DNA of 9,980 nt. Source: Candidatus Odinarchaeia archaeon (GTDB lineage Archaea > Asgardarchaeota > Odinarchaeia > Odinarchaeales > Odinarchaeaceae). The translations under genes were made by a program, and so were the position numbers. Location: NCBI GenBank assembly GCA_029856525.1, contig JAHQXC010000050.1:1-9980 (forward strand), written 5' to 3'. Numbering within the stretch: the first letter of the stretch is position 1; every line of letters begins with the position of its first letter. Under the pieces are notes generated by a model, which was not told the origin of the DNA, did not search any database, and saw only the letters and a program-made list of their open reading frames with translations. Positions 82 through 4,849 of this stretch are shown piece by piece.

Positions 82-93
82 AAGGTGTTGGTG

Positions 94-807
94 ATGGAGG
101 GGCGGGAGCGTATTTTAAACTCAAGTTCTTTGAAAGAGGAGCTTCAAACTCATACTAGGAGATTAGTGAGTGAAAGGGAGCTTTTAGCCACTGTAGACGA
201 GGCGACTATGAAAAGAATATACGAGCTTGAAGCTGAATTATACGCTAATCTTGCAACGCTTCAATCTATATCAAAGAGTTTTGAGGAGAGTCATATAGAC
301 CCCGCTACTTTTAAACGTCTTCTAAAAGCTCTTATGAAAGCATCTTTTAAAGCTAAACATGAACTTGAGAAACTCGGACTAGATGTTAAAGAGTTTATAC
401 GAAACCACGGGTTTCTAGAAGAATTTAACTTAGCGGTTAAAAACTTGGATTGGAATGTGGAAGCGGATAGCTCAATATATGAGATTCTTTTAGAGTCCCC
501 TGGGAGAATAGCGGTTAAAACATCTGAGGTTGTCTCCAACTTTATCACATTATCCGACTTGGTTAAAATCAGAGCTTCCTGCGAGTTTATCTCCACTTTT
601 TTAAACGAGTTATTCATCGCTTTGAGCAAATACCCTGGGTTCAGTTCAACCCACCCGATTTGTAAAAGAATACTTGAATGGCAGAGTAAATTGAAAGATC
701 TGAATCCCTCCGATAAATTAGATGAGAAAACAAGCTTAGAGCTTGATAATGCTATTCAAATCTGGAAAAGTGAATTCGATAGTATTATTAGAAAAGCATG
801 TTTATGA
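94..807 (+). CDS. vps28: ESCRT-I subunit Vps28 homologue (full length: N-terminal helical hairpin plus C-terminal four-helix bundle)
   Basis: YELEAELYANLATLQSISKSFEESHIDPATFKRLL matches the Vps28 N-terminal pattern (ENLAELYSIIxTLExLEKAYIKDxI). VVSNFITLSDLVKI and ILEWQSKLKDLNPSDKLDE match the CTD (VQxFITxMDxLKL; IxxWLxKLNxMxASDEL). The ORF track starts at GTG 85; ATG 94 is preferred because AGGTG at 83-87 lies 6 nt upstream. Confidence 0.88.
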   Translation: MEGRERILNSSSLKEELQTHTRRLVSERELLATVDEATMKRIYELEAELYANLATLQSISKSFEESHIDPATFKRLLKALMKASFKAKHELEKLGLDVKEFIRNHGFLEEFNLAVKNLDWNVEADSSIYEILLESPGRIAVKTSEVVSNFITLSDLVKIRASCEFISTFLNELFIALSKYPGFSSTHPICKRILEWQSKLKDLNPSDKLDEKTSLELDNAIQIWKSEFDSIIRKACL

Positions 808-820
808 AGAGGTTTTATAG

Positions 821-1552
821 TTGGGTATAAGTGAAATAGAGAGAAGATTAAAAATTAAAAGAGCTTATAATTTAAAGTCTATCGAGTTGAGGCTTATCGA
901 ACTTGTTTCAAACCCCTTGTATAAAGAGAATCCTGAGCGGATTATAGAATGTTTATTCAATGAATTCGGCGTCGACGTGTTTGAAGATAAAAATTTAATT
1001 GAAGCTTTATCAGCGTCTCTTAGAAGCTTAAATATTAATCCTAATAAAATATTCGGCGGATTATTACCTGATAATACGGTGTTTGAGAAAAATATTTTCG
1101 GTAAATTAAAAGTTAACCATAGGAAACTAGGGGAGTTACTTCTCCGCAGAGCCTTTTTATTAAAGAATACTCGGGGCGGATTGTTCACAATCGGAGAGTT
1201 ACTTGAATGGTTTAATAGTAGTGCAGAATATAAGTTACAGGCTGAGGATATATTGAAAGCTGTGAAAATACTTGAAGAAAATAAATTGATCCCGGGGAGA
1301 AAGATTATAGGCGGTAATGTGACGGTTGTTCAATTCCTTCCTTTAGAGTTAACCTTAGACCACCGTTTTATACTAGATCTAGCATGCGCTAAAGGATGGG
1401 TTACTGTTGAAGAGGTTAGTAGAAGTTTAAAATGGCCGCTTGAACGGGTAACCATGGTGCTTGATAAACTCGTCGAGTACGGTTTAGCAAGAGTGGATTC
1501 AAGTTACTCTCACGGTAAAAAATACTATTTCCCAGCTTTTCTAAACAAGTAG
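821..1552 (+). CDS. vps22: ESCRT-II Vps22/36-like subunit (EAP30 tandem winged-helix; Vps22/SNF8-like, no GLUE domain)
   Basis: LGELLLRRAFLLKNTRGGLFTIGEL, EDILKAVKIL, VQFLPLELTLDHRFILDLACAKGWVTVEEVSRSLKWPLERVTMVLDKLVEYGLARVD and YYFPAF closely parallel SNF8 (NGGLITLEEL; QSVPAELNMDHTVVLQLAEKNGYVTVSEIKASLKWETERARQVLEHLLKEGLAWLD; YWLPALF). TTG start with SD GAGGT at 809-813. Confidence 0.92.
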   Translation: MGISEIERRLKIKRAYNLKSIELRLIELVSNPLYKENPERIIECLFNEFGVDVFEDKNLIEALSASLRSLNINPNKIFGGLLPDNTVFEKNIFGKLKVNHRKLGELLLRRAFLLKNTRGGLFTIGELLEWFNSSAEYKLQAEDILKAVKILEENKLIPGRKIIGGNVTVVQFLPLELTLDHRFILDLACAKGWVTVEEVSRSLKWPLERVTMVLDKLVEYGLARVDSSYSHGKKYYFPAFLNK

Positions 1553-1573: not shown

Positions 1574-2272
1574 TTAGAATAATATTCTTATATGCATGTT
1601 TTTCTTACTAATCCACTCCGCGCGCTTATTTTTAACTAGAATGTTAAAAATTTTTTTAAAGTCTTCTTTCGACAGCATGTGGAAGTTATCCGGGCTTTCC
1701 TCTAAGTCGATTATCTCAAAAAAAGTCAGCTCTGTTCTACCCTTTTTTAAAGCCCAATTATAGATTACTTCACTCCAATCATTGTAGCTTCTCCAAAAAA
1801 CCCGGATACTTTTACGCTCTTTATCCGTGTACTCGCAGAATTTCCTGTTAACGAGATTATTTAAGATGAGTGTTAACGCTTTACTCTTGTTTTGCAGATT
1901 TGAAAATGGTTTCTCGCTCATAAGCTCAACTAAAGTTATACTATGCAGTTTATTAGTTTTAAACCATTGAAGAGTGAAATCACTCCACTCGTTTAACCAG
2001 TCTTCGAAATCTTCAGTTTTAGTTGGAATAGTATACATCCAAGGATATCGTTCACATTGAACTGCCCAATTAAACCCTTCTCCAGGTATTTGACGGCTTT
2101 CATGTTTTATTACGCTCTCATTTTGTTGAACTGGAATCTTCTTCTCATTCTCTTCTAGATCATCTTCTATATTTTCCTCTCCGGCTTCTAATTCCTCTTT
2201 CAGAATGTTGATCTCCTCTAGCAGCTTATCTCTTCTCCCTCTATTCTTCAACCGCCGCCTGTTAAGCTCCAC
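1574..2272 (-). CDS. vps25: ESCRT-II subunit Vps25 homologue with a ~65-aa charged N-terminal extension
   Basis: FNWAVQCERYPWMYTIP resembles human FEWPWQYRFPPFFTLQP. WSDFTLQW, PFSNLQNK, IRVFWRSYNDWSEVIYNWA, LTFFEI, FHMLSKEDF and KRAEWI match the tandem WH domains (WRRPEEWGKLIYQWV; FTLYEL; FHGLDE; KAEII). GTG start with GAGG 8 nt upstream. Confidence 0.92.
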   Translation of the reverse strand: MELNRRRLKNRGRRDKLLEEINILKEELEAGEENIEDDLEENEKKIPVQQNESVIKHESRQIPGEGFNWAVQCERYPWMYTIPTKTEDFEDWLNEWSDFTLQWFKTNKLHSITLVELMSEKPFSNLQNKSKALTLILNNLVNRKFCEYTDKERKSIRVFWRSYNDWSEVIYNWALKKGRTELTFFEIIDLEESPDNFHMLSKEDFKKIFNILVKNKRAEWISKKNMHIRILF

Positions 2273-2297: not shown

Positions 2298-3449
2298 CTA
2301 ACTCTTATATTCTGCAGCCCATTCCTCATATTTTTTAATTTCTTCACGGGTTACTACAGGTTTTATCCTATTCAGTGAAGTTAATAAATCATCCATATTT
2401 ACAGGTCGAGGTTTACAGTTGAAGTCTTCAAGTAACCCTTGCCGGTCTAGTTCTCTTATAGGGTTCATAATAGATTCACGGCATATTAACGCTATATCAG
2501 AGGAAGTGTATCCTTCAGATTTCTCGGCGAGTTCATCGAAGTCAACATCTTCATCCAGCTCTACGCCTTTTAAATGATATTTGAAAACTTCTCTTCTAGC
2601 CTCTCTATCAGGTAAAGGAATGTATATTCTTTTTTCGAATCTACGCCTGAAGGCTGGATCTAAATCCCATGGCCGATTTGTAGCACCTAAAACCATAATC
2701 TGACCAGCTTTATTCTCTTTTATACCGTCCATTTCAATAAGCATCTGGGTTTTTAATCTTCTCTCACCTCCAACCTCTTCGTTATCTCTCGTAGAGGCTA
2801 TAGCGTCAATTTCATCGATGAAAATTATCGAAGGCGCATTCTCTCTAGCTGTTTTAAAAAGTGTTTTAATAGTTTTCTCAGATTCGCCAAGCCATTTAGA
2901 TACGAGTGAAGCTGCATCCGCGCTGAAAAACATAGCTTTAGCCTCGCTAGCCACAGCCTTCGATATAAAAGTTTTACCGCAACCCGGTGGACCGAATAAA
3001 AGTATCCCCTTCCAAGGTGTTCTTGAACCTGTGAAGAGATCCGGTCTAAGCATAGGGAGTATTACAGCTTCTCTGAGCGCTTGTTTCGCTTCTTTAAGGT
3101 CAGCTACATCACTCCAGCGGACAGACGGTTTCTCTACTAGAATAGTGTTTGAAACATTCTGGGTTATCTCTTTTTCAGAATCTTTTTCATTGAATAACTC
3201 ATCTGTTTTAATATTAACGGTAGCCGTTCTTCTAAGCTCTTTAGCACGTCTAATATATTGTTCAGCTGTCTTTAAACAAATATTTTTAAGCGTTGAATTA
3301 TCGGTCACCTTGGAGAGTTTAATAAGGACGTCCGCTGCTTTAAGATAGTGTTGAGAAGCCTGCTGCCATTTATTATTTTTATCCAATCTAACAGCTTCCT
3401 TAGCTATTCTAGACGCGGTTTCGAATAATTCACGGCTCATATCCGACAC
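2298..3449 (-). CDS. vps4: Vps4/CdvC AAA+ ATPase (MIT domain, AAA cassette, C-terminal helix)
   Basis: N-terminal MIT (AKEAVRLDKNNKWQQASQHY...QYIRRAKEL). EKPSVRWSDVADL, Walker A GPPGCGKT, pore loop SKWLGESEK, Walker B IFIDEID, Vps4-type arginine finger FRRRFEKRIYIPLP, and C-terminal EEIKKYEEWAAEY. Start is GTG 3449 or ATG 3440. Confidence 0.96.
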   Translation of the reverse strand: MSDMSRELFETASRIAKEAVRLDKNNKWQQASQHYLKAADVLIKLSKVTDNSTLKNICLKTAEQYIRRAKELRRTATVNIKTDELFNEKDSEKEITQNVSNTILVEKPSVRWSDVADLKEAKQALREAVILPMLRPDLFTGSRTPWKGILLFGPPGCGKTFISKAVASEAKAMFFSADAASLVSKWLGESEKTIKTLFKTARENAPSIIFIDEIDAIASTRDNEEVGGERRLKTQMLIEMDGIKENKAGQIMVLGATNRPWDLDPAFRRRFEKRIYIPLPDREARREVFKYHLKGVELDEDVDFDELAEKSEGYTSSDIALICRESIMNPIRELDRQGLLEDFNCKPRPVNMDDLLTSLNRIKPVVTREEIKKYEEWAAEYKS

Positions 3450-3569: not shown

Positions 3570-4181
3570 ATGCCTATTTTAGAGCGGCTTATATCATGGT
3601 TGAGAGGCCCTAAATTATCTGACTTGAATAGAAAACTAGAGGTTGTATGCAGGAAACTTGAACTTGAAAGTTTAAGATTGGATAAACAGGCTAAAAGTAA
3701 TCGAGCTAAAGCTAAAAAAGCACGTTTAGAAGGGGATGAGCAGGCTGCTAAAACATATATAAACCACTATCTTAAATTCAAGAACTCTATTCTTGAAATA
3801 GACTCGTATAGGCTTGGAATAGAAGGGCTTTTAACGGATCTTAGAATGAATGAAGCTGTCAGCGATGTTTCAAAAATTCTAGGGAATCTTAAATATGTTA
3901 TAAACATCGTTAAAAACAGGATTAGAATTCCAGATTTAACTAAAACACTGGAAGAAATAGATAGAAGCATGAAGCATATTAGCGGAGCTAAAGATTTAGC
4001 TGAAACCCGGATTCTATCTATGACTAAAGTAAGCCAGATTCAACAAGAGGATGTTCAAAAGGTTTTAAACGAGATAGACCAGGAGATCGCGGTTGAAGCT
4101 GAGAAATCCCTGCCTGAACCTTCAGGTAAGATCTCCGAACTGGAAAGGGAGATTGAGAAAATGAAGGAGTCTAATGTTTAA
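3570..4181 (+). CDS. ESCRT-III subunit, A-type (Vps2/24/46-like, Snf7-fold)
   Basis: N-terminal amphipathic helix MPILERLISWLRG. Basic helical hairpin (AKKARLEGDEQAAKTY). RIPDLTKTLEEI resembles Vps2 NLPQIQKIMMEF. Acidic C-terminus with SLPEP and a MIM1-like LEREIEKMK. Confidence 0.88.
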   Translation: MPILERLISWLRGPKLSDLNRKLEVVCRKLELESLRLDKQAKSNRAKAKKARLEGDEQAAKTYINHYLKFKNSILEIDSYRLGIEGLLTDLRMNEAVSDVSKILGNLKYVINIVKNRIRIPDLTKTLEEIDRSMKHISGAKDLAETRILSMTKVSQIQQEDVQKVLNEIDQEIAVEAEKSLPEPSGKISELEREIEKMKESNV

Positions 4182-4207: not shown

Positions 4208-4849
4208 TTGGGTTTTTTAAGAAAACTATTCCCTAGTAGAAAGAAATCTAAGGATGAGATACTCGCCGAACTTAGAGCTACTATAAATAGATTCACTTTA
4301 ATAAGCAGACAGTATTATAATAGAGCTGTTGATAGCAGGGATAATGCTAAAAAATGTTTAAGACAAGGAGATGTTGAAACCGCTCGCAGTCAGCTTAAAC
4401 GTTGGAGTAAATATATTGCTCGTTTTAAAAGATACCAGCAACAGGTTGATATATTAGAGGATACTATTGAAAGCATTCACTCCGCTGAGGATGCTGCGAC
4501 AATGCATAAAGCTCTCGAATCAGCTAATATATTATTGTCTAAGTCAGTTGAATTTTTAACTATGGATAAAGCTATTGAAACTAGAATGGAAACCCAGGAT
4601 TTAATTAATGAGATAGAGGCTAAGCAAGAGGAGCTTTCACGGGCTCTTGAAATAGGCGTTGAAGATGAATCTTTCATTGACAGGGAGCTTGAAAAATTAC
4701 AGAACGAGGTGGCTGTTGAAGCAGCCGCCTCTCTGCCTGAGACGCCTAGTGAAACACCTCTAGAGTTATCTGAACGTGACAGAATTAAAAAAGAGGTTGA
4801 AGAGTTGAAAAAAGCGCTTTCAGAAGAGAATTTAGAGGAGAAAGAATAG
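4208..4849 (+). CDS. ESCRT-III subunit, B-type (Vps20/32/60 / Snf7-like)
   Basis: TTG start with a perfect GGAGGT at 4196-4201. MGFLRKLF amphipathic start. Snf7-like segments LRATI, ARSQLKRWSKY, LEDTIESIHSA, EELSRAL and IDRELEKLQNE. MIM2-like SLPETPSETP (compare CHMP6 ELPEVPSEPLP) and a terminal helix RDRIKKEVEELKKAL. Confidence 0.9.
   Translation: MGFLRKLFPSRKKSKDEILAELRATINRFTLISRQYYNRAVDSRDNAKKCLRQGDVETARSQLKRWSKYIARFKRYQQQVDILEDTIESIHSAEDAATMHKALESANILLSKSVEFLTMDKAIETRMETQDLINEIEAKQEELSRALEIGVEDESFIDRELEKLQNEVAVEAAASLPETPSETPLELSERDRIKKEVEELKKALSEENLEEKE

Follow-up and report, generated by a model that had tools for sequence, protein, structure and literature searches.

How might a single Vps4 recognise two ESCRT-III proteins when the residues at the centre of the expected contact carry, on both sides, charges opposite to those of the eukaryotic pair? 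The question is raised by a contig of a Candidatus Odinarchaeia archaeon (JAHQXC010000050.1), of which a stretch of 9,980 nucleotides, hereafter the window, was analysed. The window carries a compact Asgard ESCRT cluster (Table 1), in which a Vps4 with the domain order MIT, AAA, AAA_lid_3, Vps4_C (Pfam matches: AAA 2.1e-42, MIT 1.6e-10, Vps4_C 2.1e-07) is encoded together with two ESCRT-III proteins, whose classes are named here following PMC11804906. Both of these tail-bearing proteins score above the 27.3-bit cut-off of the Snf7 profile (PF03357). The genome has a size of 1.32 Mb and encodes one MIT protein above the Pfam cut-off, Vps4 itself, and two Snf7 proteins, so the two tails have one obvious partner.

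Table 1 Genes and sequence elements of the window (positions count from its first letter)
Feature	Position	Strand	Basis or detail
Vps28-like gene	85-807		Pfam
Vps22/36-like EAP30 gene	821-1552		Pfam
Vps25	1574-2272	minus	Pfam
Vps4 AAA ATPase, 383 aa, MIT + AAA + AAA lid + Vps4_C	2298-3449	minus	
MIT domain, Vps4 residues 10-73	3231-3422	minus	Pfam PF04212 and AlphaFold2 model
MIT helix 3 segment YIRRAKELR, Y65-R73	3231-3257	minus	Translation and alignments
Vps4 R67-R68-A69-K70	3240-3251	minus	
MIT helix 2 residue D40, which would pair with the tail's terminal Lys	3330-3332	minus	
ESCRT-IIIA (Vps2/24/46, CHMP1-3 class), 203 aa	3570-4181	plus	Pfam Snf7 7.9e-09, 35.8 bits
L181-P182 of the MIM2-like LPxP element that immediately precedes the IIIA tail helix	4110-4115	plus	
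IIIA Glu-centred MIM1-like core LEREIEKMK, L191-K199	4140-4166	plus	E194 = 4149-4151
ESCRT-IIIB (Vps20/32/60, CHMP4-7 class), 213 aa	4208-4849	plus	Pfam Snf7 3.4e-14, 53.3 bits
IIIB tail RDRIKKEVEELK, R190-K201, core I193-K201	4775-4810	plus	E196 = 4793-4795

In eukaryotes, the canonical MIM1 follows the consensus (D/E)xxLxxRLxxL(K/R), and its central Arg faces an Asp or Glu of MIT helix 3. This pairing was the premise of an earlier note made from the letters of the window, and by analogy with characterised complexes it is sound. In Vta1-Did2, the central Arg, R198', forms salt bridges to the helix 3 residues D54 and E57, the terminal one, R203', does so with E33 in helix 2, and three leucines fill the groove; E33A and E57A each abolish binding (PMC5141497). 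E73A in MITD1 likewise abolishes ESCRT-III binding (PMC3496609); as the Glu of the MITD1 string RAENIK, E73 corresponds to K70 of the window Vps4.

The minus-strand translation agrees with the earlier reading of MIT helix 3 as YIRRAKELR, and the two tail motifs claimed with it, L191-x-x-E194-I-x-x-M-K in IIIA and I193-x-x-E196-V-x-x-L-K in IIIB, are present residue for residue. The MIT match reaches 41.4 bits against a cut-off of 30, and an AlphaFold2 model of Vps4 residues 1-88 is a three-helix bundle (pLDDT 89; helices 3-24, 28-48 and 52-85) whose best Foldseek matches are the MIT domains of Vps4, VPS4B and MITD1 (TM 0.7-0.85). When a profile of 54 Asgard MIT domains was compared with the PDB, it matched yeast and human Vps4 MIT structures (E 1e-15 to 1e-10), with the Asgard string 'YieRakeLk' aligned to 'YLNRAEQLK' of yeast Vps4, K70 being opposite the Glu of RAEQLK, and with 'AaeiL' of helix 2 aligned to 'GLDYL', D40 being opposite its Asp. 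The helix 3 segment of the window itself aligns to 'YMDRAENIK' of MITD1. The yeast Vps4 profile alignment and the MITD1 alignment thus both support the placement of K70 at the site of the eukaryotic type 1 MIT Glu, as the earlier note had it; at the level of sequence, R67 likewise takes the place of the eukaryotic Asp or Asn and D40 that of the Asp or Glu. For human VPS4A, D65 and E68 are presumably the equivalents of R67 and K70. From its spacing to the helix 2/3 hairpin and to the equivalents of D54 and E57, we further infer D40 to be the equivalent of Vta1 E33.

On the ESCRT-III side, the C-terminal end of IIIA reads ...SLPEPSGKISELEREIEKMKESNV, with the core L191-E-R-E194-I-E-K-M198-K199, and the tail of IIIB reads R190-D-R-I193-K-K-E196-V-E-E-L200-K201. 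Measured against the MIM1 consensus, both tails have the hydrophobic residues at 0, +4 and +7 (L191/I195/M198 in IIIA and I193/V197/L200 in IIIB) and the terminal basic residue at +8 (K199 and K201), whereas the central position +3 holds Glu in place of Arg (E194 and E196) and the leading position -3 holds I188 in IIIA and R190 in IIIB in place of an acidic residue. The earlier note had taken R190 for an inverted leading D/E; the residue is there, but the position is unconserved, being mostly I/S/A/T in IIIA and K/T/S/R/E in IIIB across Asgard archaea. A phmmer search of the PDB with the IIIB tail aligned it to 9ftl, the ESCRT-IIIB of Heimdallarchaeota AB_125, and matched no eukaryotic MIM1 peptide, so the equivalence of the tail Glu with the eukaryotic Arg rests on the motif pattern. 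A structure model of IIIA has a helix at 187-201, preceded by a non-helical segment at 181-186 (LPEPSG). This segment belongs to the proline motifs found upstream of the tail helices, SLPEP and SLPETP, in which LP is invariant or nearly so; in a set of 37 IIIA sequences L181 never varies, and P182, like E194 within the helix, reaches a conservation of at least 90%. The motifs do not match the full eukaryotic/TACK MIM2 consensus, as Lu et al. likewise remarked (PMC7240154).

In order to place the locus in its phylum, we surveyed 94 species genomes from 26 GTDB families, covering the Vps4 loci and also the ESCRT-III genes where these were not adjacent. Of the 94 Asgard Vps4 proteins, 45 have K and 31 have R at MIT position 70 (76/94, 81%), and 5, all from one family (f21), have an acidic residue (D/E) there. 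Position 67 is variable; Odinarchaeia, basic at both sites (R67/K70), represent the extreme, which is reached in 10 of the 94 genomes. The 124 Asgard tails with a recognisable hydrophobic pattern are centred on E in 91 cases and on D in 11 (together 102, 82%); among the 34 motif-bearing IIIB tails the centre is E in 31. A further 12 tails, from Thorarchaeia, are Ala-centred, and only 3 are basic-centred, all with R and all from one paralogue of family f23. At +8, K or R is found in 86 of the 124 tails, and the exceptions, Thorarchaeia and families f24 and f26, change together with MIT position 40. A Glu-centred MIM1-like tail opposite a basic MIT is thus conserved in nearly all sampled Asgard archaea, and a mechanistic role for this combination is plausible. 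The charge pattern is probably a phylum-wide ancestral state, judging from these sequences, and not peculiar to the locus in the window. The Thorarchaeia are GC-richer and yet lie within the conserved set of 26 GTDB families.

The same data bear on the reading that motif and MIT residues arose by accident from the composition of a genome rich in AT and in Lys/Glu. The pattern is indeed of low information, with 0.32 matches per 1000 residues. Against this, two paralogous families keep it at their very C-terminus in 26 GTDB families, GC-richer Thorarchaeia included, and within the genome a Glu-centred pattern in the last 25 residues occurs in only 10 of 1236 ORFs (0.8%). Proteome-wide, moreover, K/R-centred patterns outnumber Glu-centred ones about twofold (218 versus 121), so composition does not explain the tail Glu. 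Conservation effectively refutes the reading, and we regard chance as hardly credible.

To which surface of the MIT domain the tails would bind was addressed by an unbiased scan for opposite charge over 72 MIT and 21 tail positions, that is 1512 pairs, in 107 same-genome pairs of proteins. MIT position 40 with tail position +8 ranks first of the 1512, with opposite charge in 89% and same charge never, and is also the best 'compensated flip' in the scan. Most families combine D/E40 with a terminal K/R, and Thorarchaeia combine K/R40 with a terminal Glu. A Thorarchaeota contig with the same signature showed f31 to be Thorarchaeia. A genome of family f24 (G284), a second lineage with reversed polarity, likewise has K40, and the terminal K/R is lost there; in its sister family f26, position 40 is T or S and the end of the tail motif is hydrophobic or mixed. 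In a quick Vps4 tree, f24 with f26 and f31 form separate, strongly supported clades. In the canonical type 1 mode this pair is the second salt bridge, and its recovery from the sequences is the strongest, though indirect, support here for the canonical groove and register, in which the central tail Glu would face MIT positions 67 and 70. The objection that a tight hairpin puts D40 too far from tail position +8 was dropped, as the Vta1-Did2 contacts appear to have the same offset. A predicted complex of Vps4 1-85 (MIT) and IIIA 165-203 (tail), computed with our own alignments, scored 0.14 against a mark of 0.32 and was weighed neither way.

The terminal pair also bears on whether the tail helix lies outside the groove between helices 2 and 3 altogether, be it in the helix 1/3 groove together with the LPxP element in a type 2/3-like manner, in an autoinhibitory position on the basic ESCRT-III core, or on another partner. 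Such an arrangement would give a purpose to the invariant LP motif 9 residues upstream, it would agree with the molecular dynamics (MD) model of Lu et al., which puts the Loki interaction on MIT helices 1 and 2 (PMC7240154), and it could account for the observation that Loki VPS4 without its MIT domain still co-localises with CHMP4-7 (bioRxiv 10.1101/2021.11.29.470303). The top covarying pair, however, fits a type 1 contact with helices 2 and 3 and no other mode, and the 0/+4/+7 spacing of hydrophobic residues followed by K/R is that of MIM1. We consider binding elsewhere improbable.

The reading we prefer, to which we assign a probability of about 0.5, has MIT and MIM in contact in the type 1 manner, with the central salt bridge inverted relative to eukaryotes and the terminal bridge conserved. 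In it, both ESCRT-III proteins would offer their amphipathic C-terminal helices as type 1 MIM1-like motifs to the single Vps4 MIT domain, to dock between helices 2 and 3 in the register of eukaryotic MIM1. L191/I195/M198 of IIIA and I193/V197/L200 of IIIB would fill the groove, and K199 or K201 would make the terminal pairing known from eukaryotes, here with the helix 2 residue D40. E194 or E196 would face K70 of helix 3 and, in Odinarchaeia, R67 as well. The groove, the contact of the Glu with K70 and R67 and its part in affinity or specificity are what we infer from the conservation and from the covariation of the terminal pair.

At the central pair itself, covariation between MIT positions 67/70 and tail position +3 is weak. 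In family f21, E or D occupies position 70 in 5 of 6 genomes while all IIIA and IIIB tails are Glu-centred, which indicates that a K70-Glu pair is not obligatory. Four of the five genomes with E/D70 have K67, a possible substitute, and the fifth (G132) is D67/D70. In family f23, the Arg-centred IIIA paralogue, YKSRIDSLK, occurs with uncharged MIT positions 67/70 (A/N or A/A); this points in the predicted direction and amounts to one event. The contrast between Asgard archaea and eukaryotes is likewise a single event per side and so does not constitute statistical covariation. Of the co-evolved, inverted code proposed in the earlier note, the two-sided difference is conserved phylum-wide, but the covariation that would tie its two sides together is weak, f21 being an exception; the covariation analysis places MIT position 40 and tail position +8 at the top of 1512 pairs, in the canonical register.

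Family f21 lends some weight to a reading in which the type 1 groove is used but the central Glu is no recognition residue, serving helix propensity or making intrahelical or solvent contacts, with K70 ancestral and the apparent swap being two unrelated differences. Besides f21, it would be in keeping with the three TACK CdvC sequences, users of MIM2 in which position 70 is already R, S or L, and with the composition of the tails, where flanking positions are mostly E/K and a Glu could serve stability in an E/K-rich helix. It would also fit the reported cross-recognition: human CHMP1B recruits Loki VPS4, for which the MIT domain is needed (bioRxiv 10.1101/2021.11.29.470303), and four Asgard Vps4 proteins partly rescue a yeast vps4-null strain, according to Lu et al. 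(PMC7240154). The same two findings make it doubtful that the Asgard arrangement is orthogonal to the eukaryotic code, as had been suggested, although both could involve other contacts. On the other hand, 102 of 124 tails have E/D at exactly this place, whereas the polar positions next to it vary among E, K, D and A, and K/R is nearly excluded from the centre despite being commoner there in the proteome-wide pattern. Furthermore, all type 1 complexes with a solved structure use the homologous position as a key contact, and Arg-centred tails occur only where MIT positions 67 and 70 are uncharged. We judge this main rival, a Glu without any role in recognition, to be rather unlikely, and continue with an inverted central salt bridge as the preferred reading.

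The TACK sequences also suggest a direction of change. With R, S or L and no acid at position 70 of CdvC, the acidic residue would be the derived, eukaryotic state, and what Asgard archaea have there is probably ancestral. CdvC has a K/R or neutral residue at position 70 without a MIM1, so the basic residue would predate the tail helix, a point against the preferred reading.

Much of the system has been treated before. For Asgard ESCRT-III, Lu et al. (2020) put forward helices resembling MIM1 and proline motifs resembling MIM2 on the basis of prediction, and they measured binding of Asgard MIT domains to both ESCRT-III classes by ITC (PMC7240154). In their MD of Odinarchaeota LCB_4 with Vps2/24/46, R67 gives the largest term, -8.28 kcal/mol, followed by E71, and K70 is absent from the list of contributors, as far as Table S3 goes (PMC7240154). 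Vps4 of a same-genus genome (G303) has V20, K53, I57, K60, Q64, R67 and E71, which is the full LCB_4 set of seven given by Lu et al.; the window would thus belong to a relative of Odinarchaeum, its Vps4 being 85-87% identical. Frohn et al. (2022) termed some Asgard motifs 'fragmented MIM1' (PMC8970359). The proteins and tail helices of the two papers are the same as ours and were called MIM1-like there; the sections considered note Leu-to-Ile changes and a 'fragmented' MIM1, and not the Arg-to-Glu centre, the Glu-to-Lys change in the MIT domain or the Thorarchaeial inversion. A literature check on Asgard Vps4-ESCRT-III coevolution, which the earlier note had called for, found binding and MIM1-like motifs already published. 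The searched literature, in the portions consulted, contained no mention of salt bridges, charge inversion, a Glu centre or a Thorarchaeial flip. As far as we have found, then, a charge-inverted MIM1-MIT variant has not been described.

Compared with canonical MIM1-MIT pairs (VPS4A-CHMP1A, 2JQ9; yeast Vps4-Vps2, 2V6X; Vta1-Did2; LIP5-CHMP1B), the Asgard system shares the C-terminal amphipathic helix with 0/+4/+7 hydrophobic residues and a terminal K/R, the MIT three-helix bundle, and an acidic helix 2 residue, D40, matching that terminal K/R; IIIA moreover belongs to the same Vps2/24/46 class as the eukaryotic MIM1 bearers. It differs in having Glu for the central Arg, R67/K70 for the Asp/Glu pair of helix 3 and no leading D/E, and in the presence of this helix also on the B-type (Snf7-class) paralogue, which in eukaryotes has MIM2 only. 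The tandem MIM2 and MIM1 tail of IST1 offers a parallel: on this A-type ESCRT-III, too, a proline element leads directly into a helical MIM, an arrangement in which both MIT grooves could be filled; the IST1 helix, however, is Arg-centred where the Asgard tails are Glu-centred, and bipartite binding by the latter is putative. Crenarchaeal CdvB-CdvC (2W2U) resembles the Asgard pair in a Vps4-type MIT domain without an acid at the position 70 equivalent, but CdvB has only a proline-rich MIM2, bound in the helix 1/3 groove, and no C-terminal MIM1-like helix such as the Asgard tails possess.

From these comparisons, the Glu-centred form would be the general and probably ancestral Asgard state, and the pairing of Arg with Glu would have arisen later, on the stem leading to eukaryotes. 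We tentatively propose a history, possible though in our view not the likeliest outcome, in which an ancestral pair of ESCRT-III Glu and Vps4 Lys/Arg was flipped on the eukaryotic stem and Thorarchaeia, independently, flipped the second bridge from D/E40-K to K40-E, the two pairs together making up an evolvable electrostatic 'address'. If so, nature would have provided partly insulated Vps4/ESCRT-III pairs that could be exploited or put to swap experiments. The double flip in Thorarchaeia offers a natural control for the register of binding.

Recognition of ESCRT-III by Vps4 is the step that gives the machinery its direction, and Asgard systems now serve as minimal models of the eukaryotic machinery. 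Should the polarity of the central contact indeed be opposite in the two, searches with the eukaryotic MIM1 consensus would under-call or mis-describe the Asgard motifs, and Asgard proteins placed in yeast or human cells would be working through partly mismatched interfaces. The flip would then also mark a datable change on the eukaryotic stem.

The second MIM1 salt bridge, which would pair the terminal tail residue (+8) with MIT position 40, has its two residues changed in Thorarchaeia (family f31, loci L107-L135). Thorarchaeial Vps4 carries Lys or Arg at position 40, within a helix 2 that reads LKASKILIK, and the family's ESCRT-IIIA tails have Glu at the terminal position, with the C-terminus L-E-E-A-I-K-S-L-E-K-E-L-G. 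From these residues, the second bridge is predicted to be reciprocally inverted in Thorarchaeia with respect to both the other Asgards and eukaryotes.

Both ESCRT-III tails of the window possess an LPxP element a few residues upstream of the tail helix, and its LP is invariant or almost so throughout Asgard IIIA and IIIB; this arrangement of element and helix resembles the tandem MIM2 and MIM1 tail of IST1. At the other end of the protein, the window ESCRT-IIIB has a short, basic and amphipathic N-terminus (MGFLRKLFPSRKK), similar in kind to the ANCHR-like membrane anchor discussed for B-type ESCRT-III. Separately, KLLEEINILKEELE in the N-terminal extension of Vps25 fits the pattern hydrophobic-x-x-E-hydrophobic-x-x-hydrophobic-K, which is rare at C-termini (10 of 1236 ORFs in this genome's proteome) and itself holds little information. 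A genome of the window's genus, G302, matches Vps4 only over residues 159-383, inside a 583-aa open frame; gene fusion, rearranged DNA or an error of assembly may lie behind this.

Coordinates of the tail, N-terminal and Vps4 features
Feature	Position	Strand
LPxP element, IIIA tail (SLPEP)	window 4110-4124	
LPxP element, IIIB tail (SLPETP)	window 4730-4747	
Vps25 N-terminal stretch with KLLEEINILKEELE	window 2165-2233	minus
ESCRT-IIIB start, TTG codon, protein opening MGFLRKLFPSRKK	window 4208-4246	
Thorarchaeial f31 example locus	L116:1198-1461 and L116:392-1015	
f23 IIIA-like paralogue, Arg-centred tail	L243:1387-2055; L252:595-1299; L254:1050-1796	
Partial Vps4 match	G302:C57:5957-6631	

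MIT position 70 is acidic and eukaryote-like in five of the six genomes of f21 (L148, L150, L151, L152, L068; helix 3 YFKRAELL, YFKRADQL or YLDRADEL), a family that includes closed genomes of ~4.4 and 6.0 Mb, and the ESCRT-III tails of these five are Glu-centred throughout. The sole Arg-centred, canonical-looking MIM1 type among 124 Asgard tails belongs to an IIIA-like paralogue of f23, ending ...I-K-D-Y-K-S-R-I-D-S-L-K/R-G; in the genomes bearing it, MIT positions 67 and 70 are uncharged (YLARANYL, YLARAAYL). Finally, small-genome lineages of f24 and f26 (L054, L072, L080, L081; L137-L147) have a divergent helix 3 (RVLELL, RIQKLL). Position 40 is Thr, Ser or Lys in these lineages, and in their ESCRT-III tails the third hydrophobic position is followed by a hydrophobic or mixed residue (LEKELKDIL), a combination that may represent a third state of the MIT-tail interface.
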